From Botryllus schlosseri (Eukaryota), in assembly GCA_051294905.1 (NCBI GenBank), contig CM119372.1:32924001-32988000 (forward strand): DNA of 64,000 nt, in the 5' to 3' direction. The translations under genes and the position numbers were made by a program. Under the pieces are notes generated by a model. The model saw only the letters and a list, made by a program, of their open reading frames with translations. It was not told the DNA's origin and did no database searches. This document shows, piece by piece, positions 1,401-51,824 of this stretch (its first letter is position 1; each line of letters opens with the position of its first letter).

Positions 1401-1523
1401 CTCCCAACGCATGTGGAATCGCAACATGTCCCCAGTTCAGCACCTGTTCCACTGAAGGCGGAGTGTCTGCGTGTATTTGTATATCGGGATATGTCTTTGC
1501 CTCTGCTACGCAAACGTGTGTTG
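1401..1523 (+). CDS. EGF-like exon 1
   Basis: tttacag|...|gtgag; PNACGIATCPQFSTCSTEGGVSACICISGYVFASATQTCV. Confidence 0.85.
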
Positions 1524-4500
1524 GTGAGCTCTGCAACTTTTCCAATTTTCCTGGAGTCTCCAATCGCAAACTATTACATTTAAATATAGTCAATCGTATA
1601 GCGACGCATTGCAACATGGTTGTACCGATTACTTGTGGTCATTGCTCAGTAACGAAGTATTTCTTTTATTTTTTTATTATTTTGTGTGTCTTTTTCTTTC
1701 CTCTGTTATCTTCTATATGGGTTACAGACTATCTACTGTTGACATGTTGAAATGAATACACTGTGTTACTCCCCCAGTCGTTTTAGGTTTCCCCATATTT
1801 ATTTCCATCCAGTATTCATGCCTCTTAATTACGTCGCCCAAGACCAGTGGTTCCCAACCATTTTGTCTTCGCGGACCGCCTTTGAACCGTCACAGACTTC
1901 CGCGGACCCCCAGGTTTTAGTTCAAATATAGCTCTATCGTGCAACCGTCATCTGTCTTCTTCAAGTATTAGTTGTAGGCAAGTATTAAACAGCAACAAAA
2001 TTACCATTATTTAAAATAACATCATGCTATATTTATGTTGAAATTGAGACGACTTTCAGTATTTCAAAGCGAATTCTGTGGCCACATTTATTGAAACACA
2101 CTACCGTGTCTCGAAAATCCTTGACGTCAATTTTACATGAACGAGTGTCAAAATTCCAATAATTTCCACAAAGCTATTAGGTGGTGGGGAATGTAACAAA
2201 AGCGTCTAACGCTTCCGACGACACCTTTGGGTCTCATCGCAACATCGGCACCAATATAACGTCATTTCTATCTAGCAACTCATCTTGAAGTTATTCTGGA
2301 ACAGCGGTTATGTATATCAAAGGAGAAAGTGAATTTTTTGCAAGCGAATTTATTCCAAAACCTAATAAAACATATCTGAACAGCGATATGTTTGTATCAG
2401 TAGGGTATCGGCAATTTGGCGATTAAAATGAGCTCGCAAAGTAAGATATTTTATTTCAGACGGCCATTCTGTTTACGTAAGTCCTAAGTTTTAGCAGGTA
2501 TGAAACGAAACTGCTTCGAAGTTTCTCTAATTTTAAAAAAAGGAATAGGTTGACAGATCACACATTTTGCAAATTTGAAGGTTTTGCGGACCCCCTGAAA
2601 TTGTTTCGCAGACCCCCGGTTGAGAACCACTGGCCTAGACCCAGTTGGGTGTCTGGTTTCAGAGACTACCACTCCAAGTCGTTTCGACACCTTCCAATCT
2701 TTTGATTTTATTGCAGTCTTGTGTGTTTTGAAATGATGAAAATGTCAATAAACTGATACTGACACTGCTTTTATGGTGACGATTAACATATCATCATGTC
2801 TGCATCCCCGGTCTGCCTGAATTCGTCTGTCTGTCTTCTACTTTTTCGGAATACTCAAGTACTTCTTGCCTACTTGTACCACTTATTCAATGCATTAAGT
2901 TGTTAGACTACTTTCACTTCTACTGAGCTGTTGTTCTGGCAAGACATTTGACGCTATTAATTTTGTGAAGTACAAAGTAGTCTGGGTATATGTTTGTATA
3001 ACTTCGAGGAGTGCTATTGTCAGATAATTTGTGAGAAATAGACCCGCGTCGCCCTTCATCACATTTTTGCATTCCGACAGTCCAGCCAGTACGATTTCAT
3101 TGTCGTGGATTATTTATTGTCTTGTAGGATACTGAGTTGAGTCAATGGGCTCTTTGTGGACATAGGACGAAGTATGATTTCTTACCGGCAATTATTCAAC
3201 TCTCATATTTTTGTCTATTCCAGTTATCGATCCCTGCCAATCCGTCTCGTGTCCTCAGTATTCCTCTTGCAATCGGGGAAGATGTTATTGCAATTCCGGT
3301 TACGAAGGCGACCCGTCACGGGGTCCATGCACTCGTAAGTAGATCTGTGTCGCTCGAAATATGACGGTGATTTATGAAGGCAACCTGTTTTTCAGTTATT
3401 GACCCTTGCCGTACGGTTCAGTGCCCACAATACTCCAGCTGTCAACAGGGACGCTGTGTATGTGACACCGGTTATCAAGGCGATCCTAGTAAAGAACCAT
3501 GCAGTGGTTGGTGTTCCGTTCGTATTTTTAGTGTAATAATTATGAATAATATACGCCGAGATTTATAGACTTATGAATAACAGCAAAGGACTTCAGAGTA
3601 ACTATAATGTCCAGTCCATGTGGTCACTTCACTTATCATCCATATTACAAGTAGTAGACATTTTTCCCTATTTAAATGTTTAAAGTTTATTCGGACTTCC
3701 CTCAATACTTTACCTTTTGAGCGAGCTGCAAAAGCTAAGATCAAACGTGGGTCGCGCTAAATGAAAGTAGAAAACGGACCACACAAGACACGTATAAACT
3801 GCCGTAAATGATCTTGGTTGTCTCAACGCCCTGATATCATAAACACTATCACCAGTATACATTTGTTCCACATATCAGCGCAAACGACAATAGGGTAGAT
3901 GTTTTTGTTGCTAACAAATCAATCAAGTATAAATAGACATGATCGAAATACATGACCAATTGCAGGGAGAAAGACATTTTGTATTAGTGAATATTTGTTG
4001 GATGAAGTAGCAGAGTTAGCGAGAGAACTGCTCAAGTGCTCATACGAATGCATTATGAATTGGTTGAACATTTTCCTTGTTTTTCTACATCCCTACTCTG
4101 CTGTATATATTAGCAGAAAAACTGCGAGGAGAGAAAATATCCCACGCTCGGGCTAGATCCGACTAACCGAAAACATTAGCTGTACATTTGCTACTCATAT
4201 AGTGTGATGTACCATGAAGAATAGTGCCGTGATTCCACATTCAACCCGACTTCAAGTGTCAAAATATGCCATTTTACCTTCAGCGATTGACCCATGCAAA
4301 GGAGTGGTTTGTCCAACCAATTCGCAGTGCTTCCAAGGAAAATGCAGATGCAACGCTGGCTATCAAACTGATTCCACCAGGCAACAATGCATCCGTGAGT
4401 CATTACATTCAAGTGTTTATAAGTGTCTGAAGAGTGGCAACAGGCCTCTGCGTAATTCGTTAATCTTGCAGATCCACCCCACATCGTTAGAGATTTCGAT

Positions 4501-7500
4501 TTAGGGATTGAGAAATTGAGAAAGTCCAGGTTGCTATGATCAAATGCTGTTGGCCATGCTGACCATGATTAATGATAAAAATTAAAAGCTGTAGTACTGT
4601 TTTCTCATCTCAATCCATAGTAGTTAATCATATAATTGTGACAAAAGTAAGAAATGGATTTGTCCGCCAACAGGATCTTGTGCTCAGATCCTCTCTCTTG
4701 AAGAGCGCTTCGCTGGAAAGGCAATATGCCGATTAATACATGTATATAATTGTATATGCATTCTTATTCTTATGAAACTTTCTGATCTTTATGTAGTCCC
4801 AAAATTTCTAATTGACCCTGAGAACAGATATCAAAATCGGAAGAATTATTTTGAAATGTGTTTCCCGTATCATCTGCATCTGACCCAATGGTTCTGGCAC
4901 GTTTTCTGTTGTGCAGGCTACAGCAAGTGTCCAATGTCCATGCAACGTCCTGAGTGTAGGACACATGGTGAAAATACGATTTCAAAATGCTCTCTGAATG
5001 TGTTGGCTGTTACACTGTGTTCAATCTGACATATATTATGGAAGCTCTTAATATATTATAATGTAAATTATTTCTATTCATATTTGGGCAATATGAAATC
5101 TTTTGAAGCATTGCTGCATAAAGTTGGATTTGACACAAGTGCTACGCAACCGTTACTATGTTACCTGTGTGGATACACTGCAGCATGTTTCATGTTACTA
5201 AAACGTAATCGTCAAACATTCATTTGAATTCATTACAATTGTAGCAATCGATCCTTGCGCTGGGGTTACGTGCGGGCCAAATTCGTCCTGCGACAAAGGA
5301 GTCTGTGTTTGCCGAACAGGCTACGTCTTGCGGGCGGATGTGTGCGTCGGTAAGTCAAGCTACACATTTTAGGAAGGTTAATTGCTTCGATTGGAACTCA
5401 TTGTCAAAGTGGTTCGGTGTGTGGTACTGTGATATATTTCGTTAGAGGTGACATGTTGGCCGTTTCTTCGCTATGCCCCGAGGGAATTTTCGTATGGATA
5501 AGCATAAATTCACCACTCCACTACTCACCGCCAGTTCCCCGTCATTCGCATGGTCCAATATGCCTTATTGATAGCGTCATCACGCAATCACTCAAATCTA
5601 ATCTCCGGTGATATCAAGATAAGCACTTTCTCCATCATCCAAACGCAGCGATTGTTCAGCCATTCGGTGAAACAAATTCGCATTCAGTATTTCGATGGTT
5701 TTGCGACAGCATGTCACTTCTTATGTAACGCCTAAAGGTGATATCGAGAGCAACGTCTCTCTGAAAACAACCATGGTGTCCTTAACATTTTACAATATCG
5801 AGAGGTCTTCCCTAGTGTTAGCATAAAATCCAGCTTGGCTACGTAAAATGCTGAATAAGGTATTTTGCATTAATGATCATTAACTTACAGTATGCGCGGT
5901 TTCACCTGACCACAAACTAAACAATAACAAACACAACAAACTGGACCGATTTGCACCATTGTTAAATAATGCTACATACAAAGTAATGTTGGATTCCGTG
6001 ATAGTTATTTATGCCTACGTGTACGATCAGCTATCTGAGATTGCAGATGTTCGAGAACATCACAGCCTGCCATTGATAATGGAAATTCATACTTTGGCCT
6101 TGAAGTTGTCGGCTTTTTGTGGGGACAGTGCTAGCACGCCTGACTCCCGAAGCTATTAGAATGAGCGGTCGCTGGAATGTTATGGATGGAAATGTTATCG
6201 CACATGCCGCAATCCAGCAACAATATTCATATCCAAGATGAATACTATATAAATGTATTTTAATTCAATGAAGAATGAGCACCCTATCTCTAAAATAAAG
6301 TGTCAATTTGTGCAAACTGTGTTTCATATACAACAGTTATTGACCCCTGCAGTGGAGTTACGTGCGGAGTGCATTCAACCTGCCGCCGAGGTACATGTAT
6401 TTGCAACACTGGATACGTGGCTCAAGGAAACGTTTGTGTTGGTTAGTGTTGGATTGCTAGTTGTCATAGCATTCAGCAGGGATAGCCGTCGCTGACAGCA
6501 TATTTTTCATTAAGAGTTAGTTGATGACCTTTAGCAATGCTTGATAAGACCGCGCTGCAAAGAAGTTTTCTTCGATCCAGGAATAGTGGAGAAGCTAACA
6601 CTTCCTATAATTTTCCTATATACTAGGGTTACCATACGTTCTCCATTAAGAGGATTTGTCCTCTTGTTTCAGGTTTTGGAAAATGTCCTCCGAGGACGCC
6701 TAAATGTCCTCTTTATTTTGAGAATTTTTGTTAAATTCGACTGAGACTGAGTAAATATGCAGTGAGGTAACGCTCCGGCGGCTGTTTCGGGAGCTGAGCC
6801 GGAAAGTTGACCCTTTTGTTTTGTTTTTTATTCAACTAACTGATAATGTGAAAGAAAAACTGTATTTCGGGCACTGAGCGACAAATGTGACCTTTTTCAG
6901 TCAACCGACCACGAAGTGGAAAAAATTTACCATCTTTTCTAGATTTTCCTCCGGTATTCTAAGTTTGAAAATTTTGAAAATGTGTCCCCCTTACCCGATT
7001 CCAAAATATGGTAACCCTACACTGTAAAAAAAAAACTAGATTTACCGCGAAATGTTTGGAAGCACGGTAGCCAGACATTTCGTGGTAATTTAACATTACC
7101 GTTAGTCAATGTAAATTTAACTTACACTCGTCCGGTAATCTCACTTAACACGCCAGACTGTAATGTTACAGTCACCTCCGGTATATCCAATCTACATTTT
7201 ATCCTGTATATTTGCCACTCGGACTGTAATTTTACCGCCTACATATTATACATGCTGTCTCTGTAAATCAGGATTACATACCAGCTTGTAAATTCACGTA
7301 CATCCCATACCTATCGCAAAGCAACCCGATGCTAAAATATCGCAGAAGCTTCTTCACACCCCCAAAACGACATTGGAACAAACTGTATAGTGTATAATCA
7401 TTCATGATTCACGGTGAGAAGATTATCGATGGAAAAGTATTGCTGCTGGAGGTCTAATTCTTCTTTAGGAGACATGCAGTAACACGAGTGGTCTTCCACC

Positions 7501-22500: not shown

Positions 22501-25500
22501 CACGGCGTGCAAAAATACATGATGATAACAGACACTTTGATTGTTATCTGATGAGTTTTCTATAATTTGTGTTATTCATTTTATTTTTCAGCAATGGACC
22601 CGTGCATGGGTGTAACATGTGGAGACCATTCCAGTTGCCAAGGTGGATCGTGCCATTGCGATCATGGATACACTGTTCGAGGCAGCGACTGCGTTTGTGA
22701 GTTGTTCAACGAGTTTTGTCATTCGCACTGTGCTTCTGTAAAGTGTCTAAATTACACTGATGATACATGCATGTTTGGGCTCAGTTTCTGGGATAGTTGT
22801 ACATATAGGTTATATGACATTGAGCTATCTACAACAATTATTGCTTGCCTTCGTTTTAGGACTTAACCGCAGTCTAGAATTCAACACTGCATACCTGTAT
22901 GACTAGTAGCTAGTTTGCATATAGTCATAGTCTTCGATGTATATCTTTCATAGTTTTCTACTCCCATTTAATGAAAATATCCGATCATGTTCACTTGTGG
23001 TTAAAGTTAATACATTCAACTAGTGTTTTATGACTTTTTTTAACCCTTCTGTCCACTCCAAATGCGTAATATATTTTCTTTTTCAGCAATCGACCCGTGT
23101 ATGGGTGTTTCATGTGGAGACCATTCGAGTTGCCACGATGGATCGTGCCATTGCGATCGTGGATATACTGTTCGAGGCAGCAACTGCGTTCGTGAGTTGT
23201 TTGACGAGCTTTGCGATTCGAACTGTGCTTCTATGAAGTGTATCTACAGCTGTCCACACACAGCATATTATCTTCATCACTGCTATCTAGGTTGCATCTA
23301 TCCAGAAGCTTTGATGTAGAGTAGGGCTGCATCTTTCATAGTTTTGCTACTCCCATTTAATAATGATATCCGATCATGTTCACTTCTGGATCAAGTTAAC
23401 GCATTCAACCATAGTGTTGTTCTAACTTTCAAATTCTTGCAAACAAATGCAATATAATAACAGATACTTTGATTGCTGTCCAGGAGGTTTCTTTTCATTG
23501 TTTATGTTTTCATTTCTTTTTTCAGCAATCGATCCGTGCATGGGTGTCTCATGTGGAGTCCATTCGAATTGTCACGAAGGATCGTGTCATTGCGATCATG
23601 GATACACTGTTCGTGGGCACAGCTGCGTCCGTGAGTTGTTTGATGAGTATTGAGATTGCTAACTCGGCTTGAGTGACTTGTGTGAATTTCAATGGCGATG
23701 CATGCAAGTTCGGTTTCAATTCCTCGGGTAGATATTACGGAAAGGTCATACCAAATTGAACCGTCCGCAACAATGCAACAATTCAGTGCCACTATTTGTG
23801 AACTCAATAACAATCGAGTATTCGATACTGCTTACTTTGGGCACTGATATCTACGGTAGTTTTCAGCTGGCCAGAAGACATGTTTTTGTCTTTTAGCTGT
23901 TGTTATGCTACGCCACGATTTTGTTTATCCGTCCTCTCCAATTCCTCTAAACTTGAAGTATATGAGTGAATATTGTTCTGAACGGCGTGGAGTCAAATAC
24001 TTGACAATAGCAGATACTCAGAATGCTTTGGTCTTACAGTATCAAACGATTCTCGACTGGACATCATCAAGTTGTTTATGTCCAGAGATTCCGCTGAAAA
24101 TAGGATAATATGCATTCGATTTCTCGCTACGATTTTCTTCTCAGTACCCCCTCTCTTAGACATAGACAAGCTATAGTTGCCTATTTTCATATGGACACCG
24201 ATTTAGCCTCGGAAGACGCCGTTTTCGTTACCTAAACTCCTTCCCGAACATAAATTCAACTTGTAATTTATGATATTATCTAGGTTGGATATGTCACAAT
24301 TGATCAGTGACATAGTGCCGTTGTTTGTTATTTTTGCCGGATCCCCCTACTGTTAGCAGCATTCAAGGACACTATACCTTTGCGTGATAACGAACAGACT
24401 TGAGTCAGCAAACAGAATATTTTGGGCCGTCATTTTCGTGGTTTAACTTGTGTTTGAATCATAGAGAGCTTGTTTCAGCTCGATGTCTAGCGGGGAATTG
24501 TAGAGGTCTCTTGAACCTCTGTTTATACTCGCATCAACTCTGTATGCATGACATCAGTGTTTCAGGAATGGAGACGATTTTAAAGGATTACAAAATCAGT
24601 ACGGCTCACCCAAACATAATAGTATCCGCCCCAAAGAAATTTCCAAAAAAGACATTTTCCCTAATTCCAGCTGTTGATCCATGCGCTACCGTTACGTGCA
24701 AAAGTTACGCCTTATGTGTGAATGGCCGATGCAAATGCCAAACTGGATATGTACAGCACGGCGAGGAATGTAAAAGTAAGTGGACTTTTTAATATGCGAT
24801 CGATGGTAATCAGTCCTCCATCACCCAATCAACAAGGTCAAATACGGGGAAGCTGTGACGTATGTAGGAATTCAAGAAGCATACATGTAAACAAGACATC
24901 TGAACAATTATTAACGACAATGATGCGAGATACTGGCCGTCCCTTCTCTGTATATTTATTATCTGGTCGGTTGATAATATAACTTTGTGGCACAAGAAAC
25001 TTACCATAATTTCGGTACTGCCATGCTCGATTCGGATTCAAGTACGCGAGTCGTTTTTTCCGAGCCCTCTTGTAGCCGCCACAACCAGCCTCTGACATTA
25101 ATTTAGGGTTTCCATGCCTGTATATAACACCGCAGATCTTGAGGGTGCCATCCGTTCCGGAGGCTGGCTAAAAATAAGACTCTGAATATCCTTGGTACTG
25201 AAATTTGCTGTAACTGAGATACACGCATAATACCAATGCCACTTAAATCAAAGGTTGAAATAAGCTTTCGCTCATTTTCGTAAAATATCGCACATTGTGA
25301 GTTCCTTTACGTTGACCAGACCACGGCAAATGGATCCGTGACGTGATGCCTTTGTTGTATTTTTTCAACGTTCTCGACGGTCGCTCCCAAACTTCATCTT
25401 TGTCAAGCTTGTTCTTGCAGTAATGACTAGTCAGTTGGTCTTGTTGTCTGGTGTTCATGGTGTTTCGACTACATAACGGCATAGTCACCTGTCTGATATT

Positions 25501-28500
25501 CTTCAATATGAATCCGCATCTATCGACTTGTAACACGTGTCGGAATTTCACTTGTGGTGTGCGAACTTGATCGTTTTCATTTTCTGCATTTGGCCTTCAT
25601 TAGAAACCGTCGACACCCCTGGTCTACATCTATGACCTGGTATGATATCATAAAAATTTCTGGTGTTGTTCAGATGCGGACCCGTGCGCGGATGTACTTT
25701 GTCGAAAGAATTCACACTGCGTCAGAGGGCAATGTCACTGCGACCGTGGTTACCTGGCCAGGGGAAATGAATGTGTCCGTGAGTCTCATTCCCGAGGTTG
25801 TAATGACTCAATTCGAATCGCGGTCTTATCGTGACTCGACATGACTCGAGTCATTTTCGTAAAATACGGAAACTAAAAGCTACTCGATTTGAGTCAATGT
25901 GTGTGTTGAATCGACTTGCGCTCGAATCATAGCACATGCCCCGACCAAATCATATGACCCGGACTCGGACGATCAAGACAGACATTTCTCTGTAACTTCG
26001 AAGAAGAATAAAGTTCCCACATTATTCGAATTTTGTCTGTCAGTACTGGTACTTGGAAAATAGGGCCAAAATTCGTATATCATGAATACGATGCATTCGA
26101 TATTATTAAGGCAGAGTTGTAAGAAGTGTCTTGATCATGACCTGAACTCGAAACTCAACACTAGGGTTGTTCAAAAAAAACTTTTTTTTCCAAATCTCAC
26201 TCGCCTACTGACTAAATCGTCAGGTTGTCCAAGAAAACGATGCACACCAAATTTGACTCAATTCCAACCAGTCATGGCCGTGCAATCTTGAATTGAAATT
26301 TTTAATTTATTAAAAAAATTAAAAAAAAAAATTTCTCAAATTTTTCTGTCAACCCCATGAAATTGTTGAGCTGTCTTCAAAGACGATGCAAAACAAATTT
26401 TAGTCAATTCCGACTAGTAGAAGCGGAGCTATTTGAGTTTTTCGTTGATAATCCCCGGCTCAAGGATAATCCGAGAAATATCAACGAAAAACGCGAATAA
26501 CTCCGCTTCTACTGGTCGGAATTGACTCAAATTTGTTTTGCATCGTCTTTGAAGACAGCTCAACAATTTCATGGGGTTGACAGAAAAATTAGATTTTTTT
26601 TTTTTTTTTAATAAATTAAAAATTTCAATTCAAGATTGCACGGCCGTGACTGGTTAGAATTGAGTCAAATTTGGTGTGCATCGTTTTCTTGGACAACCTG
26701 ACGATTTAGTCAGTAGGCGAGTGAGATTTGGAAAAAAAAGTTTTTTTTTAACAACCCTACTGAACACTGTGCTATATTTTGAGAGCTGACTAATCAAGTA
26801 AGTACATTTCAAAAGATGTTGGCGATTTGCAAGTTTCGAATATATATTCAGTTATCTTGATACGGGCATTTGTGATGGATTTGACTTATAACTGTCATGC
26901 AAACATGTAACAATAGTAGGCCTACTTTCAATCTTGGTGTAAAACGTCTGTAGTTTTGCCGTCAACATTCTGAAGTGGAAATGGTGAAAAAACATACCCA
27001 CGAAAGTAATGCATGTATGCAAAGCCTACGGAGTAGAAGTACATCATAGCAGGGTCACCTCTGGACGTATTTCTAGGCTTCGAATTTCGCCAGCTGAAGT
27101 TACGCTCAATATCGGACATATTTCTATTTGAAGCCACACAAAATGCCGAACTCCCTCACCCCCTGGCCCCATCCCCCCGTGAATGTAACCGCGAATGCAG
27201 AATATGTAACAAAAAGAAAATATCAGCTGTTGGTCAGTGGTGAGCGGATATTGCTTTCTGAGAATCCGAATTCGTCCGACAGCTTTAGTCACTGAGGGAC
27301 AATCCATCCGATTACAAAATCTGGTTTGAATAACTTTTCCGAAGATTCCGAATTGTACAGCTTAGTTATGATGCCTTTGAAAGGTGTTAGCTGGTTTATA
27401 TTTGTTTGTAGTTTTGGCAGAACCGCTTTAAAGTGCTACCAGTCCTGTCACAAGGTGTTCACTGTTCACTGTCCGTGTTTTTTTGTCGAGCGAACGATTT
27501 ATTCTCTTGGCTTGTGAGAGCAAAAGTCACGTCTGGCCAGAACTATCCAAAAATATCCCAAACAAAAGTTACAGCGATATGAAAACATCCGAAATAATAT
27601 CAGCAATAGAATCCGAATCCAATCCACTGTCACATAATCCGGTCCAAGTCCGGTCAATGCTCATCACTGCTGTTGGAGTTATCCGTGACATTTAATACGC
27701 TATTTACAGATAGTGACCCGTGCTACCAAGTAAAATGCTCAGCAAACTCCCACTGTGTTGGCGGACATTGCCAATGCATGGACGGCTACGTACGAAGACA
27801 CAACAAATGCGAAAGTAAGTCATCCGGATTACCTGAAAGCTGTTATTTCACCAGCTTAAATTACGACCCATGCTAGACATCTTTCTTTTTGAAGCCACAC
27901 AAAAAGCCGAACTCCCTCAACACCCCTAGTGAATGTAACCACAAATGCATAATAAGTAACGCAAAGCAAGCGTCAGCTGTTGGTGGCAACCGTGACACTT
28001 GTCACGCTATTTACAGATAGTGACCCGTGCTACCACGTCAAATGCGCTGCAAACTCCCACTGCGTTGCCGGACAATGCCAATGTATGGACGGCTACGTAC
28101 GAAGACACAACAAATGCGAAAGTAAGTCATCCGGATTACCGGAGACATGTTATTTCACTCAACCATTTGCTCAACTGCAGAAGACGACCCGTGCTACGAT
28201 GTCAGATGTCCAAATTTAGCATCATGCAAAGACGGCCAATGCTATTGCAGAGACGGATATATCAACGATGGACACGGTAAATGTACATGTAAGTTGAGAT
28301 TGCTCTGTTGTGAAAGATTGTATCATTGGAAATCGACTGTACATGATGTGATTTATTTCAGCGGCTGATCAATGTCCGAGAAAGCCTTGCCCTCCCAATT
28401 CAGTGTGCCAGCAAGGGATATGTGTCTGTTACCCAGGATTCGTTGCTTGGGAAAAACGCTGTATACAGCAAAGTGAGTGCAATGTCGATCCGGACCTAAG

Positions 28501-31500
28501 TCACATCAGCTATAGGTCACGGACTACATGTTCTCGGAGTTACAGTAAGGATAATATGTTCTCGTATCCGATATTAAGGCTATCGGCGATGACATTTTAT
28601 GAGATCACTAGGATGAAAGTGGTGTTCGTGGTTCATAAAGTCGAAGGAACATTGTTGCTACGGCTGGGCAAATTTGTGTACCTGGCTACCTGATTACCTG
28701 CCTATTTCAAAGACAAGCAGAAATGTAGAAAATTACATGAGTAAGTAGTTGTGGCAAGTTGATGGGAAAAGGCACCGTATATTCGTTCGTGGATCGCCAG
28801 TGTCAATGTCCGCGACTAAGGGGCAGAGGGGGTCAGGAACAAAGTATTTTTACTTTTTTGAAGTACTCAATTAGTTTTCGCTACTTGGATACTTACTCAA
28901 GTAGATCTTATTTCCTGCTACTTCAACTTCGTAATATTTTGTGATCTACTTACTTACTTTTCGCTATTTTCAGTTTGTCAAGTAGTAGAAGTAGTTTATT
29001 CCTCCAATCAGGAAGATAGCCTGAAGAATTTCACGGCTGTTTTCACGGAGTATCAACAATGAATTTTTGTAAAAGTTGAACCACCGTGTTTTTTATTAAC
29101 GTTTACTAATCGCGCAAAGTGTTTATATCGTATCTGATGCAACTTCTGCGTATTGCTCTTCGACTAAACTACGGGCCTTATAATGTGGGGAATGGCGCCA
29201 TACCATATTTTTTTTCTAAAACGGGCTGTTCGAGTAAACAGTGGAATAATATCACATTTCCCTATCAATTCTATCATTTTCATGCCATGATGCGGACGAA
29301 TGCTTATGCTATCGAAAATTGGATACCTCCTGGTATGCATCAATATGAATCAAGCTCTGGACCTTTCGCATAGCTCAATTAGCAACTTTTGACAATCAAT
29401 GCGAACAAATTACGATCGTTTTCACAACTACTTATTTACTTGAGTAGATTAAGTATCAGTCAATTCTACTTCTACTTCAAATAGTTTTAGGTTCCTCATG
29501 GAAGAAGTACTTCTACTCGTACTAAAGTAGTTTTTTCCTCGATACATCTACTTCTACATGAGTAGTTTTCTTGACTAATTTGACCAACTCTGCTAAGGGG
29601 AATGCTCAGTGCTACCTCAAACAAGAAAACTTGAAGTTGTGATCGCCATGTCGCAGTGGCGTATCCAAGGGGGGGTTAGGGGGTCGGAACCTCCCCTTTT
29701 CAAAATCCTAAGAATTATGTCAAATATAGCCTCTATTATTGCTAATTTATTAGTTCAACATAGTCGTTTTTTCGTATGATAGGGCGATTATGGCGCCTTA
29801 ATGTTATTTAGGAGGTCTAAAACCCCTACAAAGTTTTTGAATTATGCGCCGAATTAATCGAAAGGATAAAAAAGTTATATTTCGCTAATTTTTACGCATT
29901 CTGCGCTTGTTCAGCTACATTTCAGCTATGGCAGTTGCTGCCGTTCTCAATTTTCTCCCCTCGATTTCTCTCTCGCCTTGCAAAAACGAGAGACGCGATA
30001 TGTAATTAGAATTAAACCAAGATCAAGTTGTCGGCAATCAACATCACCCGCGAATTCGCTGCACCTGCTCGCATTGAAATCATAATCAAGGATTGCACGG
30101 TGTACTGAAAACGTACAACGACCTTATCGCAAGTTTGGTTTTCATTAACTAAATGAAGACTCAAGCAACTTAACGCGACACACAAAAACACCCAATATAT
30201 AGGGAGGGTAAGATGCGGGTAATAATCAACACAAATGATGAGATCACGAAGAAACAATAAACACCACACACGGCGTGTTGATTGATCAGCGAGACGCAGA
30301 CATGGCGACACCAGTAAGACAATGCTGTTCTCAAATCCACATTGTCTTCGCGATTATCGGCGAGAAATGGCCTACAATTGACATTCACATTTCAAAATGC
30401 ATAAGCCTAGCGATCCACGTTCTCGAATATTAGGTGGCTTGCTGTCGTTAAAATACCGGCCTATGTTGCTGCTGAACGGGAGAATTGAGTAGGCCTAGTA
30501 GTAAAGCTAACCTAATGATATCGACTGGCAAGTTTCTCTGTTGCTCGAGTCATTATCCCAGTGTGTAGTCAGTAGTAATTGACTGACTTGAGTGCTAGCA
30601 ATTAAGGTCTAATTATCTTCGCGCGTACTACGCGCTCAGCCGTACCGCTAGTAACGCCATCGAAAAGCACACATTCGTGCACCCTGCACAGTGCACTGCA
30701 CACCTCTGTGTGGCGATCGCCCTCGTTTATGCGATCGCCGTATCCCGCGTTTGTTCGTCCGCTGCGATACTACAGGCTGTGCGCATCATATAGTCAAAAC
30801 CTAACAAAATCGCGTATCTCTGGCCGGAACCTGGCGTTTGGGGACGGGCGGCGTTTGCCGGCTCATGACTAAATGTGATAATTTACGAATTTCTTTCAGT
30901 CATACCCGATAAACGCAGTTTTCAGGCATTGTCGTATTAATATATCATTTCCCACTCACCGCATTTTTTTTTTATCGTTGAACTTCAATATATCGTACAA
31001 ATTCGCCACGGAGCTTAGACGAATGATCATAATGATGGCGTCATTATGGTCAATTGTGTAACGGAACCCCCTCCCCTTTTTTGCGTTCTAGATAGACGCC
31101 TGTCCTGTCGGTATGATGACTTCATTCACAAACCTTCCACATAAAAAACCAGCGGTTTGACCTTGAAATCTGACAAAGTAGAATGGTAGTAGTCTTCAAA
31201 AATATACGCTTGATGAAGTCGAACAAATGCTGGTCGATACCCTCTTGAGTATTTCCGAACATACCGTATGTCGCAAAAAGAGGCCGGCAACTCTAGAAAA
31301 GTGTTACAACAACTATGATGTCCGTCAAGACTATCTTCTGTATGACAGCAATTTACCCAATATAATTTTGGCAGTTAATTGGAGGTGGCTATTTTAATAA
31401 TTTCGAGATGTATCGTTACGAATAACGCAAAATGACCAATGTTATTATTAGAATTGTAAAAAGTAGTAGAGGCTCTTATCTCCCGGAAGGATCTGGTGCG

Positions 31501-34500
31501 TCACCGTCTGTAATTACCGAGACCCCCAGACCCCCCTCCGACTATACGCTGTTTACATTGGGTTTACGCTGTTTCTTCATTAGATGTCCGTTGAGTGAGT
31601 CAGCTTTGCTTACCTAATCGCGCCAAAGCGAGAAATATTTATAATTCGTGACTGAATCGGTCAATATGATCGGTGTTGCTTATATATTGCTATCAATTTT
31701 TATCCTCGCTCTGCTCCCGTAATCTGGTATACCGGTACAGCTGAGTAAGGTGTGCTTGAAAAGGTAGGACCCCTCAATAATAATTGAACATCTCCGGGTG
31801 TATAGTAGTATACCTGTTGGCAGGAACGAAACAGCACTTCGTCAGGCCCCCCAAAAAAACTTGAGTCTTGGGCTCCCATAGGGTGAGAAACCGACCCCCC
31901 CCCCCCCCCATCACGTTGCTCGCTTTTGCCACGAAATTACAGTGGTACTGTTCAGTTAGCCAGCGCTAAGCGCGAAAATCTTTGATAATTAATGATAAAA
32001 TCGGTCAATAAGATCGGGAGTTGAATATATATTGCTCTCAATTTCTTGTCCTCTCTACTCACGTAATCAGATTTACCGATAGAGCTGAGTGAGGTGTCTT
32101 TGAAACTGTTGAGCCCGTAAATAATAGCCTATTAAACGTCTTCTGACGGGCGGACTCGTTGGTATGACTTCGTTACATGATGTTATTTCGTGACCTCCTG
32201 TCTGCTATATCAAAAAATATAGAATCGCCCAAACGTACTAAACTAAAAGATCACACTATTTCAAATTGGTAATTCTTCACTGGTATCTAATTTTCTACTG
32301 CGGGATCGTATTTGTCTTGTGAGGTTCAGATTACCGAGACAGAAACATTCGGCACCAGTCATTTAGGCGCCTATGGACAAATAAACCTATCTCTATTTCG
32401 TACATAAAACGGAGTTTTCGGTCACCATAAGGGCAGTCCTTTTTTGCCAAGGTTTCTCGCTGCCGATCGTTCTGACACTCTTCTTGGAGTCGCGTGTTAC
32501 ATGGCGTAAAACTGTATATGTCTTTGTGCGTCGTGGCGCGGTAATGCCCATTTTTATAAATCTTGCGTATTTTACCTTGGGGGAAGAGTGCCCAATAATC
32601 ATAACATATGGCGACTTGAAATCGCGCGCAGCGCGCAAAATTTTTGAAGAAGTTGCCTAAATTTTTGAAAAATACTCTATAATTTATGCTATTTCACCAA
32701 AAAATTTGGGGCTCTCTTCGAGCTCGCCCCCGCCCAATTGGGGGGTTTGGGGTGCGGCAGTTACGGCCCTGGGTATTAGTTACTTTGAAACATAATTCAT
32801 CTTCGGCTATATACGAATCCAAATTAGGTAGTCTACTAGATGATATCACAAATTCGGCCGCAGGGGTTAATAGCTCGGGCTGTGCCAAACAAAATGACTA
32901 ATATCACCACAAACAGGTCAATCTGCAACAGTAGGCTATATTCAGTTGACCTTGATATAAGGAATATTTCACGTGGATGTTAAGACAGTCTCATTCGTAA
33001 AAGAGACTCAAACGCATCACCAAACTGTTCTCTACTGTTTAAACCAGAGTGTAAAAAGGAAACAGTTAGCCTAAAAAAACTTGGCTAACTGTCAAGTATA
33101 GGAGTGTAAGTAGTCTAAAACCATGACCACTTGATTAAGTAGTGCAAATTGGCAAGACCTACTTTGACTCCGAAAAAGTAGAATCACTTAGTTACTGGAC
33201 ACCTCTGGATGAAGTTATCTGAGAATCATATAATAGTTATGTTAGTATAGTAACGAATGCTTCGAATATACGCAGTTACGTACTCAAGCCTAAGCCGACC
33301 GCCATGTTTACGTTTCAGGCATTCCATCTTATGGTAGTGGTCCTGGATATGGACAGGGTGCGGGAATGGGCTATGGTCCGGGATACGGTGGCGCTTCTGG
33401 TGGTTATGGATATGGGAGTTGCCAGGGATTTTGCGGATCAGTTACGGGATCGTGTTCCTGCCAGGCGGCCTGTCTAAATTCGAATACCTGCTGCAGTGAT
33501 TTCAGTCTGCACTGTGAGTTCCTTACTGTTATACGCTGTACTTCGTAGGGAATTATATGGAAGCTTGACTCTGGAATTCCGGCCTGTGAAACGTTTGTCT
33601 TGACCCCTCATGGCCAATCGCAGCAGCTGGGCTATGAGTTGAAAAAGCCTAGTGCAAAAACGGTCTGTGGTACTTTTAGTTAGCAGGAAAACACGGCAAC
33701 TCAACGGGTGTAATATCGATCGCCAAGAGTGATCAAGTCGTACCAACGTCAAGTTGATCATGTATCTCCGTTGGACATTGTCCAGAGCTCGAAGAGCGTT
33801 GTCAAGAAATGACCAGTTTTCAAGACTTCATAGCTTTCAGTCAGTGCATTTCAAAAACATCTGTTTCCAGAACGTTTCTCTGAACTGATGTGTAAACAAT
33901 TGGGTCACAACCCAATTTCCGATTTGAAAATGTTCCACTAAAAAAGGCCAGCACTATCGCTCAAACCTAACCACGTCCCATTTGGGAAGCTGCTTCCTGA
34001 AAAAGTCAGGACCTCGTGGCCTCCAGAAAAAAGGTTGAACCTTGTATATCCCTGAAACGAGGGTTGCATACAAAACAATCATCAACTTGAAACAAACATT
34101 TGTTAAATCGCCATTGTTTAAAACAAGTTTTTTATTGTTTCATTTGATTTTTTGTAACCATGACTTCACGAATCTTTATTTGTGACGTCACAACGAATTG
34201 ACATTGCCAAGTCATAATTTAGGGAGAATATGACTCTTTAGAGCAGTGGTTCCCAACGTGGGCGATATCGCCCCCCAGGGGGCGATTTGGCGGTCCAGGG
34301 GGGCGAAAATAACGAAGGGGGCGATAGGGGGGCGAAAACGGACGAAGGGGGCGATAGGGGGGCGATGGCACGGTAAGACGGCTATATTGGAGTCGGGACC
34401 GTAACTACCGCACCCCAAACCCCCCAATTGGGGGTGGGGGCCCAAACTCGAATGAGGCCTAAATTACTTCGTGAATTAACATAAATTGTGGAGTAATTTC

Positions 34501-36132
34501 TTAGTAATTCACGCAACTTTTTCGAAAAATTTTCGCGCTGCTCGCGATTTTATATTTTCTTATATCTTGACTTTGGGATACCCATCCCCCAACAAAATTA
34601 CGCAGGATTTATGGAAATGGGAGACTTCGGTGTCAGCCATTACTGCACCACCACGCACCAAGACATATTAAGTTTGAGGCCATGTAACATGCGACTCTGA
34701 GAAGTGTGCCAGAACGATCAGCAGCGAGAAGACCTTGGCCGAAAAGGAATGCCCTTGTGCTGACCGAAAACTTCGACATATATACATATATGTTTAATTG
34801 TCCATAGGTGCCTCATTGGCTGGAGTCGAATGTTCCTGCCCTGGTGACCTTAACCCTACAGGACAAATGCTATCCCGCAAAGTAAAAATTATTTACCAAT
34901 TTGAAATCATGTGCGTCTTTTAGTTTGGTACGTTTTGACGAGTTCCATACCTTCTGACATAGCAGATATAGGAGGTCTCGAGATAGCAACATGTAACGAA
35001 GTCAATATAACAACGATTCCGCCTAATTTCGGGGCCAAAGCGAACAACGTGATGGGAGTCGGTTTATCACCCAATGGGAACCCAAGACCAAAGTTTTTTT
35101 GGGGAGGGCCTGACGAAGTGTTGTTTCGGTCCTGCCAACGGGTATACACCCGAAGATGTTTAATTATTATTTAGGGCTGTCCTACCTTTTCCAACACACC
35201 ACACTCAGCTCTACCGGTAAATCTGATTACGTGAGCAGAAAGAGGATGAAAAAATTGATAGCAATGTATATGCAATTCCCGACCATACTGACCGATTCAA
35301 ACGTGAATTCTATAAATTTGTGGCTCTTCGCGCGTTTAGGCGAAATACGGTGACTCACCAAACAGTACATGTCTTAGGGTATAGCTGATATGTAGCGAAA
35401 AAAAAAACACTGGCTGACAGGGGGTCTGAGGTGGTTTATCACCCTATGGGGACAAAGACCAACGTTTTAGGGGGGTGACAAAGTGCTGTTTTTTGGTTCC
35501 CAATATTTGGGGGGCGATGATCGGTGTGGAGCTTCAAAAGGGGGCGATGAGTCGAAAAAGGTTGGGAACCACTGCTTTAGAGGCTTTCGACTCCTGTCAA
35601 AAATATCTTTAACCAGCACTACATCATCAGACCACCCATTCCATACCAATGATCTATATCTACGTGCAAGAACTGTTGAACCGACAACGATTACGAGGGT
35701 TCCACCAACCATTCCATATCAAATATAAAGCGTACGAATCGTCGGTAGGGTCATACTACATGTTTTTGCGAAAGAATTTACACAATTATGGCATAATTAT
35801 ACCACGGTGAAAAAAAATAATTTTAAAGGCATCTTTTAAAACACCATTTGTTCAATATGCAGCCCAACCTGAAACACTGATATTGTCTCGTCTATAGTGA
35901 ATTCCTTAACGACGCTGCTTTTGAAACATCCACATTTCTTGCGATCGGGGTGTGGGGATAATTGTGGGATGTCCCCAAAGACGAGTAATTGTCTTTACTG
36001 TTATCGCCCTCTCTCTCTCGAATATACTCTAAAGAAAGCCCCATTGTGAGACCTACTTCTTATTCAGGTGCTCTGCAACCAGTTGTGCAACCAGTTCAAC
36101 AAATGGTTCCAGGATTACCCTATTACGGTTAA
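1401..36132 (+). CDS. Multi-exon gene (5'-incomplete) for a large, probably secreted protein: 26 tandem EGF-like modules, Gly/Tyr-rich linker, somatomedin-B domain, short Pro/Gln/Val tail
   Basis: 28 exons with AG/GT boundaries; the first 27 are phase 1-1 with lengths divisible by 3. Splicing them gives one ORF of 3035 nt with no stop at any junction codon, ending at TAA 36130-36132. Module consensus DPC-x4-C-x5-C-x2-G-x-C-x-C-x2-GY-x6-C. Confidence 0.9.
1845..2632. mobile_element. hAT (Charlie-like) MITE
   Basis: TIRs CAGTGGTTCCCAACC / GGTTGAGAACCACTG; degenerate 8-bp TSD cccaagac / gcctagac. Confidence 0.8.
3224..3334 (+). CDS. EGF-like exon 2
   Basis: ttccag|...|gtaagt; IDPCQSVSCPQYSSCNRGRCYCNSGYEGDPSRGPCT. 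Confidence 0.92.
3396..3506 (+). CDS. EGF-like exon 3
   Basis: tttcag|...|gttggt; IDPCRTVQCPQYSSCQQGRCVCDTGYQGDPSKEPCS; follows a 61-bp intron. Confidence 0.9.
4284..4394 (+). CDS. EGF-like exon 4
   Basis: cttcag|...|gtgagt; IDPCKGVVCPTNSQCFQGKCRCNAGYQTDSTRQQCI. Confidence 0.92.
5245..5349 (+). CDS. EGF-like exon 5
   Basis: ttgtag|...|gtaagt; IDPCAGVTCGPNSSCDKGVCVCRTGYVLRADVCV. Confidence 0.92.
6337..6441 (+). CDS. EGF-like exon 6
   Basis: caacag|...|gttagt; IDPCSGVTCGVHSTCRRGTCICNTGYVAQGNVCV. Confidence 0.9.
6624..7019. mobile_element. hAT-type MITE, related to 39773-40220
   Basis: TIRs TAGGGTTACCATA / TATGGTAACCCTA; GTCCTC/GAGGA motifs; the left TSD ctatatac reappears as tatatac only after the element at 7020-13839. 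Confidence 0.75.
7900..8422 (-). mobile_element. Partial inverted copy of the MITE at 45726-47045
   Basis: Reverse complement aligns to about 45726-46270 (CGCGAGAAATTGAC...CTCCAGCAG-CGCGCTCAAC); end GGGTGACAACCACTG; left boundary approximate. Confidence 0.7.
8810..10021. mobile_element. hAT-type MITE nested in the CACTG element
   Basis: TIRs CAGTGTTGCCACTC / GAGTGGCACCACTA; perfect TSD cgctccac (8802-8809, 10022-10029); subterminal AAAACACTAGAT repeats. Confidence 0.88.
12392..13263. mobile_element. Charlie-like hAT MITE nested in 10890-13766
   Basis: TIRs CAGGGGTCACCA / TGGTGACCCCTG; TSD tactggag / tactagag (7/8). Confidence 0.85.
12501..12779 (-). pseudogene. Degenerate fragment of 28S (LSU) rRNA, central region around expansion segment D7
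   Basis: Minus strand reads GTAGCAAATATCCAAATGAGA...GTTTCATATGAGCAGCAGTTGAACATGGGTCGGCCG...GTTAATATTCCCGA...GCGGAGATCGGCGC...GCAACGCAACTGAGC, colinear with remembered eukaryotic LSU blocks (GTAGCAAATATTCAAACGAGAAC; GTTCCATGTGAACAGCAGTTGAACATGGGTCAGTCGG; GCGGAGATGGGCGCC); recalled, not searched. Confidence 0.75.
14403..14507 (+). CDS. EGF-like exon 7
   Basis: ttgcag|...|gtaagt; IDPCYGVTCGPNSSCKNGVCVCQTGYVLQSGACV. Confidence 0.92.
14681..15689. mobile_element. Older hAT-type MITE with a probable small nested MITE at about 14938-15145
   Basis: TIRs TAGGGTTGCCA / TGGTAACCCTA; degenerate TSD ccgtattg / ccctatcg; GTCCGGAATT subterminal motifs; absent from the paralogous intron after exon 5. Confidence 0.7.
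16371..16475 (+). CDS. EGF-like exon 8
   Basis: caacag|...|gtcagt; RDPCRGVRCGQYATCRRGACVCITGYVQQGSVCV. Confidence 0.9.
17572..17676 (+). CDS. EGF-like exon 9
   Basis: ttgcag|...|gtaagt; PDPCAGVTCGPNSSCDKGKCVCRTGYVLQSGVCV. Confidence 0.92.
18227..18331 (+). CDS. EGF-like exon 10
   Basis: ttccag|...|gtaagt; PDPCAGVTCAANAHCRGGICVCKDGFVEYQGTCV. Confidence 0.92.
18554..18658 (+). CDS. EGF-like exon 11
   Basis: ttatag|...|gttagt; PDPCRGVVCGPNSKCKGGICECVAGYYVDGSSCK. Confidence 0.88.
18732..18836 (+). CDS. EGF-like exon 12
   Basis: ttccag|...|gttagt; IDPCSGVVCGPYSECKNGICECIAGYHVQGSSCK. Confidence 0.9.
18908..19012 (+). CDS. EGF-like exon 13
   Basis: ttccag|...|gttagt; IDPCSGVVCGPYSQCSNGICECIAGYHIQGSSCK. 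Confidence 0.9.
19085..19189 (+). CDS. EGF-like exon 14
   Basis: ttccag|...|gttagt; IDPCSGVVCGPYSKCQNGFCECISGYHVQGSSCK. Confidence 0.9.
19263..19367 (+). CDS. EGF-like exon 15
   Basis: ttccag|...|gttagt; IDPCSGIVCGPYSQCNGGICECVAGYHVQGSSCK. Confidence 0.9.
19436..19540 (+). CDS. EGF-like exon 16
   Basis: cacacag|...|gtaagt; IDPCHGVKCGQNSYCSGGVCHCMDGYTVKGGRCV. Confidence 0.92.
19790..20660 (-). mobile_element. Degenerate hAT MITE remnant
   Basis: End TTGGCCACCCCTG and about 120 bp upstream are the reverse complement of the element start at 46392; interior shares blocks with 7800-7930 and 11810-11910; left boundary uncertain. Confidence 0.5.
20983..21087 (+). CDS. EGF-like exon 17
   Basis: ttctag|...|gtgagt; IDPCMGVSCGPYSSCHNGACHCDDGYTVRGSRCV. 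Confidence 0.92.
21767..22418. mobile_element. hAT-type MITE with GACTCGAGTC/GACTT subterminal repeats
   Basis: TIRs CAGTGTTGGGAT / ATCCCAACATTG; perfect TSD ccgtgatg (21759-21766, 22419-22426). Confidence 0.9.
22592..22696 (+). CDS. EGF-like exon 18
   Basis: tttcag|...|gtgagt; MDPCMGVTCGDHSSCQGGSCHCDHGYTVRGSDCV. Confidence 0.92.
23087..23191 (+). CDS. EGF-like exon 19
   Basis: tttcag|...|gtgagt; IDPCMGVSCGDHSSCHDGSCHCDRGYTVRGSNCV. Confidence 0.92.
23526..23630 (+). CDS. EGF-like exon 20
   Basis: tttcag|...|gtgagt; IDPCMGVSCGVHSNCHEGSCHCDHGYTVRGHSCV. Confidence 0.92.
24671..24775 (+). CDS. EGF-like exon 21
   Basis: ttccag|...|gtaagt; VDPCATVTCKSYALCVNGRCKCQTGYVQHGEECK. Confidence 0.92.
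25674..25778 (+). CDS. EGF-like exon 22
   Basis: gttcag|...|gtgagt; ADPCADVLCRKNSHCVRGQCHCDRGYLARGNECV. Confidence 0.9.
26162..26759. mobile_element. Foldback (almost fully palindromic) hAT-type MITE
   Basis: About 285-bp near-perfect inverted arms, TAGGGTTGTT...AACAACCCTA, short loop near 26450-26478; TSD ctcaacac / ctgaacac. Confidence 0.92.
27235..27669. mobile_element. hAT-type MITE with ATCCG repeats
   Basis: TIRs CAGTGGTGAGC / GCTCATCACTG; TSD ctgttggt / ctgttgga; the paralogous intron before exon 24 has the single empty site ctgttggt at 27977-27984. Confidence 0.9.
27710..27814 (+). CDS. EGF-like exon 23
   Basis: ttacag|...|gtaagt; SDPCYQVKCSANSHCVGGHCQCMDGYVRRHNKCE. Confidence 0.92.
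28017..28121 (+). CDS. EGF-like exon 24
   Basis: ttacag|...|gtaagt; SDPCYHVKCAANSHCVAGQCQCMDGYVRRHNKCE (recent duplicate of exon 23). Confidence 0.92.
28181..28288 (+). CDS. EGF-like exon 25
   Basis: ctgcag|...|gtaagt; DDPCYDVRCPNLASCKDGQCYCRDGYINDGHGKCT; follows a 59-bp intron. Confidence 0.92.
28362..28472 (+). CDS. EGF-like exon 26
   Basis: tttcag|...|gtgagt; ADQCPRKPCPPNSVCQQGICVCYPGFVAWEKRCIQQ. Confidence 0.9.
28824..29592. mobile_element. hAT-type MITE with CTACTT/AAGTAG subterminal repeats
   Basis: TIRs CAGAGGGGGTCA / TGACCAACTCTG; perfect TSD ctaagggg (28816-28823, 29593-29600). Confidence 0.9.
29654..31102. mobile_element. Degenerate hAT-like non-autonomous element
   Basis: Starts CAGTGGCGTATCCAAGGGGGG, ends TCTAGATAGACGCCTG; GGAACC(C/T)CC motif near both ends; TSD ccatgtcg / tcctgtcg (6/8). 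Confidence 0.55.
31515..32771 (-). mobile_element. MITE-derived segment, inverted homolog of 34395-35430
   Basis: End GGGGGTTTGGGGTGCGGCAGTTACGGCCCTG is the reverse complement of CGGGACCGTAACTACCGCACCCCAAACCCCCC at 34395; diverged inverted similarity continues for about 1 kb. Confidence 0.75.
33319..33513 (+). CDS. Exon 27: Gly/Tyr-rich segment plus somatomedin-B (SMB) domain
   Basis: tttcag|...|gtgagt, 195 nt, phase 1-1; IPSYGSGPGYGQGAGMGYGPGYGGASGGYGYG then SCQGFCGSVTGSCSCQAACLNSNTCCSDFSLH, matching the SMB pattern SCxxxC...CxCxxxCxxxxxCCxDF/YxxxC. Confidence 0.88.
34244..35574. mobile_element. Charlie-like hAT MITE with GGGGCGA repeats, containing a second element
   Basis: TIRs CAGTGGTTCCCAAC / GTTGGGAACCACTG; perfect TSD ctttagag (34236-34243, 35575-35582). 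Confidence 0.9.
36068..36132 (+). CDS. Terminal coding exon 28: (C)ALQPVVQPVQQMVPGLPYYG*
   Basis: ttcttattcag acceptor; its first two bases GT join T33513 to make TGT, supplying the missing eighth SMB cysteine; TAA at 36130-36132. Confidence 0.8.
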
Positions 36133-43400: not shown

Positions 43401-43846
43401 AGAACGGTGTTGGCTACGGCCTGTTCATTCCCGCCCACTCCGTTCAATTATCCAAAGCGTTACCGAATGCATATTCCAGTTATTCCGCCGAATTGAGCGC
43501 CATTCTTCATGCTTTGAAGTGGATTACAGAACATGGCTCATCGTACTCTCGGTATATCATCCTGTCAGATTGTCTCGGTGCCCTCAAATCCATTTCAAAT
43601 GTATCGCGAACAGAGCTACCGTGCAGCACCAACGCTATTTTACTAAATATTTTCGAATCCTTACTTCAGGTCACCAATCAGTGCCTCCATGTAACTCTGG
43701 CTTGGATCCCAGGACACAGTAGGATCCCGGGAAATAGCCAAGCCGATGAACTTGCTAGGACGGCATCGTTATGCCCTCCTCCAACCGATGCAGCGACAGT
43801 GTCACTACCAGAAGCCAAAACCGCAATCAGATCACTGTGTGTTGAC

Positions 43847-51813: not shown

Positions 51814-51824
51814 GACGCAATGGG

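Follow-up and report, generated by a model that had tools for sequence, protein, structure and literature searches.

A tandem array of EGF exons

The 64,000-nucleotide stretch of Botryllus schlosseri DNA analysed here (positions 32,924,001 to 32,988,000 of contig CM119372.1, hereafter the window, numbered from its first letter) carries on its plus strand 28 coding exons of a real, spliced and transcribed animal gene. Twenty-six of these exons each encode a single EGF-like module with six cysteines, measure 105-123 nt and are all of phase 1-1, with two bases ahead of the first full codon and one base past the last; they are followed by an exon for a Gly/Tyr-rich stretch and a somatomedin-B (SMB) domain, and by a short tail exon. 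Together with exons predicted upstream of the window, the gene would encode a secreted chain of 32 EGF modules, with DOMON and Sushi domains at its head and the SMB domain close to its C-terminus.

A six-frame search of the window for the six-Cys EGF pattern returned 27 matches, 26 of which lie on the plus strand (1412-28462), while the single match on the minus strand lies opposite the exon at 18908, as its antisense. In fifty shuffled versions of the window, matches averaged 0.04 (at most 1), and there were none in the reversed sequence. Every plus-strand match sits in a stop-free stretch that is preceded by a pyrimidine-rich tract and AG, and followed by GT. The exons come in few sizes: one of 123 nt, four of 111 nt, one of 108 nt and 20 of 105 nt.

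Counted along the whole gene these are modules 7 to 32 of 32, and all of them read in frame in the 39-exon model described below. The series opens with module 7 (model exon 12, 123 nt, 1401-1523), followed by the 111-nt exons of modules 8 (3224-3334), 9 (3396-3506) and 10 (4284-4394), with the Pfam EGF-class matches of module 8 falling below the cut-off. The exon at 3396 most likely ends at 3506, with its donor at 3507; an alternative donor at 3504 would reduce it to 108 nt, and we placed the end at 3506 because this keeps the five-residue spacing between modules. Then come the 105-nt exons of modules 11 (5245-5349), 12 (6337-6441), 13 (14403-14507), 14 (16371-16475), 15 (17572-17676) and 16 (18227-18331), and a tight group formed by modules 17 (18554-18658), 18 (18732-18836), 19 (18908-19012), 20 (19085-19189), 21 (19263-19367) and 22 (19436-19540). 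Modules 23 (20983-21087, by its composition the start of a His-rich block), 24 (22592-22696), 25 (23087-23191), 26 (23526-23630), 27 (24671-24775), 28 (25674-25778), 29 (27710-27814) and 30 (28017-28121) are of 105 nt as well, and the array closes with module 31 (108 nt, 28181-28288) and module 32 (111 nt, 28362-28472). The exons at 18554 and 28181 start 3-6 bases earlier than a naive scan would place them, and RNA confirms the earlier start of the latter.

When the 32 modules are aligned, six Cys and one Gly never vary, and at least 90% of the modules retain a Tyr. Their Cys spacing, C-x4-C-x5-C-x4..10-C-x-C-x8..12-C, in which Gly and an aromatic residue follow the fifth Cys, is that of the short tenascin/teneurin-type EGF module. 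Nine of the 32 modules were scanned singly against Pfam, and all nine match EGF-class families (EB, EGF_TEN, EGF_2, EGF, Pvs28 and MSP1; E 3.6e-5 to 0.01), with scores that, for such single unjoined modules, all remain below the cut-off (the best being 24.2 against 24.3). A profile of the modules matches tenascins (E 1e-15 to 1e-8) and many EGF-repeat proteins, and among PDB entries it matches the EGF domains of NELL1, CELSR1 and ADGRE5 (CD97).

Splicing, transcription and the 3' end

RNA from four runs (X1, X3, X4 and X23, the last recorded as RNA-seq) was mapped over positions 27600-36900 of the window. A 2,586-nt contig of X1 and a 745-nt contig of X3 contain the exact joints 27814>28017, 28121>28181, 28288>28362, 28472>33319 and 33513>36068, all of them GT..AG, and the same five joints are crossed, in this order, by 5, 4, 6, 2 and 2 raw reads of X23. 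Both borders of modules 30, 31 and 32 are thereby seen in RNA, as is the 3' border of module 29. In contigs of X1, X3 and X4, the last 30 bases of the exon at 25674-25778 stand directly before 27710, which brings the splice joints shown at the 3' end to six. No gap interrupts the X1 contig across the six last exons, and the 1,605 nt that it holds upstream of them correspond to fifteen 105-nt exons plus 30 nt. One X3 contig extends for 3,867 nt upstream of 27710, where the model predicts 3,820-3,871 nt of coding sequence depending on the acceptor of the Sushi exon; this length fits the inclusion of all upstream exons, without proving it. Coding-site differences between individuals were seen, and the differences between runs amount to a few per cent or less. 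Within introns, at 28844-29776, 31643-32886 and 34131-35685, the depth of RNA contigs runs into the thousands, against about 100-200 on the exons, and these segments are therefore high-copy repeats present in transcripts of many loci.

The joints 28472>33319 and 33513>36068 show that the last EGF exon, the Gly/Tyr and SMB exon and the tail exon are joined in transcripts. The original prediction, which had been made from the letters of the window, would have been refuted had transcripts failed to join window exons 26, 27 and 28, and it withstands this check. Its description of 26 six-Cys EGF exons of phase 1-1, followed by a Gly/Tyr and SMB exon and a tail, is likewise borne out by the pattern search (27 matches against 0.04 in shuffles), by Pfam and by RNA.

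Exon 27 of the window (model exon 38; 33319-33513) has 15 Gly and 6 Tyr among its first 33 residues, and carries seven of the eight Cys of an SMB domain. With the last Cys absent, it matches the Pfam family Somatomedin_B (PF01033) at 25.7 bits against a cut-off of 23.1 (23.5 bits in another scan). The exon ends with a T before GTGAGT, and exon 28 opens with GT, which splits a codon T|GT across the joint. As this joint, 33513>36068, is confirmed by RNA, the split codon is TGT and supplies the eighth Cys, giving a full eight-Cys SMB domain. Past this Cys, the last coding exon (exon 28; 36068-36132, its joint being present in the X1 and X3 contigs and in two X23 reads) encodes 20 residues that end in Tyr-Tyr-Gly, and the TAA stop occupies 36130-36132. 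The 3' untranslated region (36133-36424) contains ATTAAA at 36344-36349; its extent follows from the ends of contigs, at 36369 in X3 and 36424 in X1, and RNA depth is about 0-3 beyond 36619. No relatives of exon 27 were found elsewhere in the B. schlosseri genome.

At 33513-33516, ten raw reads of X23 that run past exon 27 follow the tail exon over 12 bases before diverging from it (agreement 0.71), compared with only two X23 reads that carry the joint 33513>36068. These divergent ends, a possible alternative tail, were found neither in the window nor in the genome assembly. They may represent another allele of the tail, an alternative last exon that is absent from the assembly, or a blurred consensus.

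Upstream exons and a 39-exon model

Position 1401 is not the start of the gene. In the 40 kb upstream of the window (with the contig abbreviated to C2, the window being C2:32924001-32988000), the same EGF pattern identified six more EGF exons of phase 1-1 at C2:32914540-32921506, and the predicted gene start lies about 25.5 kb before the exon at 1401, outside the window. Further upstream, the N-terminus of a predicted protein of the sea squirt Styela clava, XP_039262363.2, aligns in order to four exons with 33-51% identity (tblastn). Three of these are DOMON exons (C2:32903997-32904136, 32904200-32904376 and 32907745-32907868) and the fourth is a Sushi exon (C2:32908717-32908983). For the DOMON family (PF03351), two of the exons cover profile positions 4-42 (31.3 bits) and 43-99 (23.2 bits) collinearly; scanned as unjoined exons, each stays under the cut-off of 32.7, while their simple sum exceeds it, and we take the domain to be present on this basis. 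The four-Cys Sushi/CCP module (PF00084) spans the entire profile (positions 1-56) and scores 46.9 bits, the cut-off being 20.7. Elsewhere in the genome, only two distant relatives of the DOMON exon were found, at C9:22243444-22243611 on the minus strand (41% identity) and at C12:9651491-9651664 on the plus strand (36%). A signal-peptide exon is predicted at C2:32899866-32899929, with an ATG start, a hydrophobic signal-like segment and a phase 1 end at AAA|GTAAGT.

Joined computationally, the 39 exons give 1,519 codons without a stop. The predicted order of signal peptide, DOMON, Sushi, 32 EGF modules, Gly/Tyr-rich stretch, SMB and tail accounts for all 39 exons. A gene of more than 1000 residues with one EGF module per symmetric exon, as had been claimed, is thus what the model and the spliced transcripts describe. 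The extent first given to it, 1401-36132, stands at its 3' end and fails at its start, where six EGF exons and the signal-peptide, DOMON and Sushi exons are now predicted.

According to the model, the mature chain has a mass of about 157 kDa and a pI of about 6.4. Cys makes up 13.6% of it and Gly 12.2%, there are three N-x-S/T sites, and the third EGF exon encodes a linker rich in Pro and Thr. Five-residue spacers separate consecutive EGF modules. The 206 cysteines of the mature chain are divided into six for each of the 32 EGF modules, two for DOMON, four for Sushi and eight for SMB, with none to spare outside the signal peptide. Hydrophobic segments are limited to the N-terminal signal-like one and one inside an EGF module. 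No membrane anchor, GPI-type hydrophobic end or ZP domain was found in the 39-exon model, in agreement with the earlier statement that the protein has neither a transmembrane segment nor a ZP domain. As such, the protein appears to be secreted, judging from a signal-like segment at its N-terminus and the lack of a membrane-like segment outside that one EGF module. Its histidines are distributed unevenly, with 25 of 39 falling in the nine consecutive modules 22-30 (residues 1046-1360; exons 19436-28121), at up to five per 35 residues, and this block could bind metal.

A counterpart in Styela clava

The best match of the EGF module profile is the same S. clava protein, XP_039262363.2 (E 6e-111), a predicted sequence of 1,268 residues that is annotated as 'uncharacterized protein LOC120338420 isoform X4' and in an earlier version as 'fibropellin-1-like'. 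It shares with the Botryllus model a signal peptide, a DOMON domain, a Sushi-like module, an array of tenascin-type EGF modules, a knot of SMB pattern and a short tail. Pfam recognises in it DOMON at 66.1 bits, EGF_TEN at 72.3 (cut-off 65) and EB at 60.9 (cut-off 24.3), with SMB reaching only 15 bits; the SMB regions of the two proteins are 34% identical, with all seven Cys of the compared fragment matched. The correspondence in domain order to LOC120338420 was obtained by tblastn on the locus, by blastp, by global alignment and by alignment of the SMB regions. There are differences as well, in that the S. clava protein has an acidic linker after Sushi that was not found in the Botryllus gene, and a different tail. 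By profile and alignment we call XP_039262363.2 a homolog, and on sequence the Botryllus gene belongs with S. clava LOC120338420.

Other databases offered little of this kind. Apart from the protein itself, a search with the N-terminal 275 residues of XP_039262363.2 brought up just two proteins, namely a nematode DOMON/SEA/TIL protein (E 2e-17), the only one of comparable length, and a weakly matching Sushi protein. The ESM Atlas held no usable match for XP_039262363.2 and only DOMON clusters at 0.75 for its head, and its DOMON head has no match by sequence in the PDB. When the protein encoded by exon 27 was compared with longer proteins, none of 75 candidates reached E <= 0.01. A search with the SMB domain only, among 1.84 billion representatives, gave 37 matches, 21 of which were scanned with Pfam and proved to be CUB-SMB-ZP proteins, trypsin-SMB proteins, SMB arrays, one protein with SMB and hemopexin, and one without SMB; none of these 21 combines SMB with EGF. 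Four of the 21 are predicted trypsin-SMB proteins, which have their SMB repeats in the C-terminal half, and in three of them the best-scoring repeat lies within about 30 residues of the C-terminus. The C-terminal SMB, first put forward as unusual, is in this light less odd than it seemed.

A literature search of main texts found no paper that names LOC120338420 or describes DOMON, EGF and SMB in one ascidian protein, and no tunicate protein with both EGF-like repeats and SMB. The name 'fibropellin' does occur in S. clava expression studies (PMC9953650 and PMC11988888), and was rejected as tissue evidence, as it is an automatic name carried by many EGF genes. The original prediction had not recognised the architecture and had suggested that the protein may be undescribed. 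No characterised protein of this architecture came up in the protein and literature searches; the order itself is nevertheless met again in XP_039262363.2, apart from the Gly/Tyr-rich stretch.

Growth of the array by cassette duplication

Tandem Repeats Finder places exon-plus-intron cassettes with a period of 178 bp, in 4.9 copies with 84% matches, at 18559-19420 on the plus strand, the exon of module 17 being the first of the series. Exon identities within this cassette array are 84-93%. Over the entire gene, the closest pairs are 18732/18908 (modules 18 and 19, 93%) and 27710/28017 (modules 29 and 30, 92%), modules 24 and 25 are 90% identical, and a tree groups the exons into clusters of modules 17-21, 23-26, 29-30, 11/13/15 and 12/14. 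Most differences among recently duplicated modules fall in the loops from Cys2 to Cys4. Among the youngest duplicates, the counts of silent and replacement changes are 3/3, 3/4, 3/5 and 4/6, and give no sign of strong diversifying selection. The number of modules is 32 here and at least 23 in S. clava, counted by the same pattern. We infer from these sequences that the array grew by tandem duplication of cassettes of exon and intron, which makes the gene a clean example of this manner of protein growth.

The symmetric exons had been proposed to allow both in-frame skipping and changes in copy number. The cassette array, the blocks of near-identical exons and the module count of S. clava together support copy-number change over evolutionary time. 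Skipping was not observed, as the contigs and reads mapped over 27600-36900 contain no instance of it. Antisense to the cassette array runs an open frame of 153 codons (18187-18648, minus strand), which is most likely an incidental result of the repeated exons, poor in stops as they are, rather than a gene.

Relation to known EGF-chain proteins

Long secreted chains of EGF modules with specialised ends have been described in several marine animals. The fibropellins, as presented in PMC10336842, are secreted proteins in which up to 21 EGF modules stand between a globular domain at the N-terminus and an assembly domain at the C-terminus, and they form a fibrous extracellular layer; the same source describes octovafibrin, the egg tether of Octopus bimaculoides, as a secreted, load-bearing protein of 135 kDa with 29 tandem EGF modules and terminal C-type lectins that assemble end to end. 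The fibropellins of the sea urchin apical lamina have C1s-like and avidin-like ends, where the Botryllus protein has DOMON/Sushi and SMB ends, and neither C1s-like nor avidin-like families are among the Pfam matches of the terminal exons or of XP_039262363.2. Octovafibrin resembles the Botryllus protein as an EGF chain with terminal binding domains, but those domains are C-type lectins, and no lectin families are among the Pfam matches of the terminal exons or of XP_039262363.2 either.

Closer in kinship are the ascidian vitelline-coat proteins (HrVC120/HrVC70, HaVC80 and CiVC57), which according to PMC9265791 contain arrays of 12-24 EGF modules whose evolution proceeds through duplication of modules. 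Besides belonging to the same animal group, they share EGF arrays and module duplication with the protein described here. However, they end in a C-terminal ZP domain, with a vWF domain and a membrane anchor in addition in CiVC57, whereas the Botryllus gene ends with SMB and 20 further residues, and its protein starts with DOMON and Sushi.

The EGF-like repeats of tenascins have the same short module (about 31 residues, with four residues between Cys3 and Cys4) and abut into a thin rod. Tenascins also have an assembly domain, FN3 repeats and a fibrinogen globe, and none of these is present in the Botryllus model. Mussel foot protein 2 of the adhesive plaque combines tandem EGF-like modules with tyrosine-rich parts, much as EGF modules stand together with a Tyr-rich part here. 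It has about 11 modules and is without DOMON, Sushi and SMB, and DOPA has been demonstrated in it; we compared it by description only.

By its predicted domains, then, the Botryllus protein is not a fibropellin, a vitelline-coat ZP protein, octovafibrin or a tenascin. Secreted EGF chains that carry end domains and have grown by exon duplication are a familiar design. The combination of a DOMON/Sushi head, a Gly/Tyr cassette and a C-terminal SMB is undescribed in the literature searched.

Possible function

So what could such a protein do? With octovafibrin and the fibropellins as its nearest functional models, we favour by analogy a rod-shaped, secreted structural protein of the extracellular matrix, and hold this reading with about even confidence. 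The 32 tenascin-type modules, abutting through five-residue spacers, would form a stiff chain stapled by disulfides, in which all 206 cysteines of the mature chain can pair and no free thiol would be left. Docking to other matrix components, or to further copies of the rod, would fall to the DOMON/Sushi head and the SMB tail, as it does to the terminal domains of fibropellins and octovafibrin, and the Gly/Tyr-rich stretch and the Tyr-Tyr-Gly end would offer tyrosines for oxidative cross-linking, as DOPA or dityrosine. In the tunicate holdfast, tyrosine is converted to (halogenated) DOPA in peptides of 1.5-2 kDa, according to PMC13079984. These small peptides are not the present protein and serve only as context for tyrosine modification in tunicates.

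We must however take into account several points that weigh against a structural rod. The S. clava protein is without a Gly/Tyr-rich stretch before its SMB, and cross-linking through this stretch therefore cannot be the core function of the family. No characterised member of the DOMON-Sushi-EGF-SMB family was found, and tandem EGF arrays also serve in signalling. In ascidians, moreover, EGF arrays serve sperm-egg recognition (PMC9265791), with HrVC70 and CiVC57 as examples. The model itself has ambiguous N-terminal borders (a donor at C2:32904377 or 32904386, and a start of the Sushi exon at C2:32908717 or 32908768), and the 33 joints upstream of 25778 rest on sequence, homology and the length of one contig, not on direct reads.

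The same ascidian precedents raise the question of whether the protein instead belongs to the egg coat and serves in gamete or self/non-self recognition, with the EGF array displaying variable loops to a partner on sperm or on other individuals, in the manner of HrVC70/HrVC120 and CiVC57. The likeness to vitelline-coat arrays, which have 12-24 modules and evolve as modules are duplicated (PMC9265791), the concentration of differences between young duplicates in the stretch from Cys2 to Cys4, the coding-site differences between individuals, and the fact that the closest SMB domains by sequence occur in predicted CUB-SMB-ZP proteins all speak for it. Nonetheless we regard it as decidedly unlikely, as the protein is without a ZP domain and a membrane anchor, the stop following 20 residues past SMB and the transcripts ending near 36.4 kb, while the silent and replacement counts show no strong diversifying selection, and the differences between runs, at a few per cent or less, show no hypervariability. 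Ranked just after it, and about as unlikely, is a soluble pattern-recognition or opsonin-like protein of the immune system, in which DOMON would bind sugar, Sushi would contact partners of complement type and the EGF rod would serve as a spacer. The strong Sushi match, and a product that appears to be secreted without an anchor, would suit such a role, but no lectin or complement-specific domain is present, and a spacer of 32 modules is far longer than in known opsonins.

The DOMON domain could also be read as a cytochrome that binds heme b, in an extracellular redox protein that exchanges electrons with matrix-bound partners while rod and tail position the head. Aligned with each other, the Botryllus and S. 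clava proteins do share the Met of a GFS..DR.M motif and a His near the end of DOMON, and Met/His pairs are the heme ligands of cytochrome-type DOMON domains. The same residues are, however, common in DOMON domains that do not bind heme, and a search of the PDB by sequence, made with the S. clava DOMON head, found no solved relative, which leaves this reading quite improbable. More improbable again is a signalling ligand of the EGF-family or Notch-ligand type, in which one or more EGF modules would act on a receptor after release or by being presented to it. Although growth factors share the EGF fold, and the module profile matches, in the PDB, EGF domains from NELL1, CELSR1 and ADGRE5 (CD97), the protein is without a DSL domain, a membrane anchor and dibasic processing sites between modules. 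Its modules, moreover, have the short tenascin form, in which Cys3 and Cys4 are four residues apart, and module number varies freely from species to species, S. clava having at least 23 where 32 occur here.

Returning to the rod-shaped matrix protein, a bolder version of it deserves mention, even if we think it unlikely. The gene may be the founding member of an ascidian-restricted, fibre-forming family, in which DOMON would grip polysaccharide of the tunic or of mucus, the rod of 32 modules would bear load, and the newly acquired Gly/Tyr cassette, oxidised to DOPA or dityrosine, would weld rods together. If so, chordates would have in it their counterpart to mussel foot protein 2 and octovafibrin, and the length of its rod would be tuned as exon cassettes are gained and lost.

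More generally, secreted chains of many EGF modules that end in docking domains are a recurring route of marine animals to fibres, coats and glues, to which this gene adds, as a pair of ends undescribed in the literature searched, a DOMON/Sushi head and a Gly/Tyr and SMB tail. Being expressed, and matched by a counterpart in another sea squirt, it offers a testable candidate for a component of the tunic, the egg coat or a mucus matrix.

Other features of the window

Just downstream of the gene lies a LINE-like retrotransposon (38627-44095, plus strand). It contains an open reading frame of 382 residues with Cys/His knuckle-like motifs and no Pfam match, and a second one for endonuclease and reverse transcriptase (40775-42973), whose frame continues past a single stop into an RNase H part (42974-44095). 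On the minus strand, an open frame of 257 residues (51058-51828) weakly resembles both the Ulp1 protease (C48) domain and a PHD finger, and may belong to a mobile element or to a gene next to this one.

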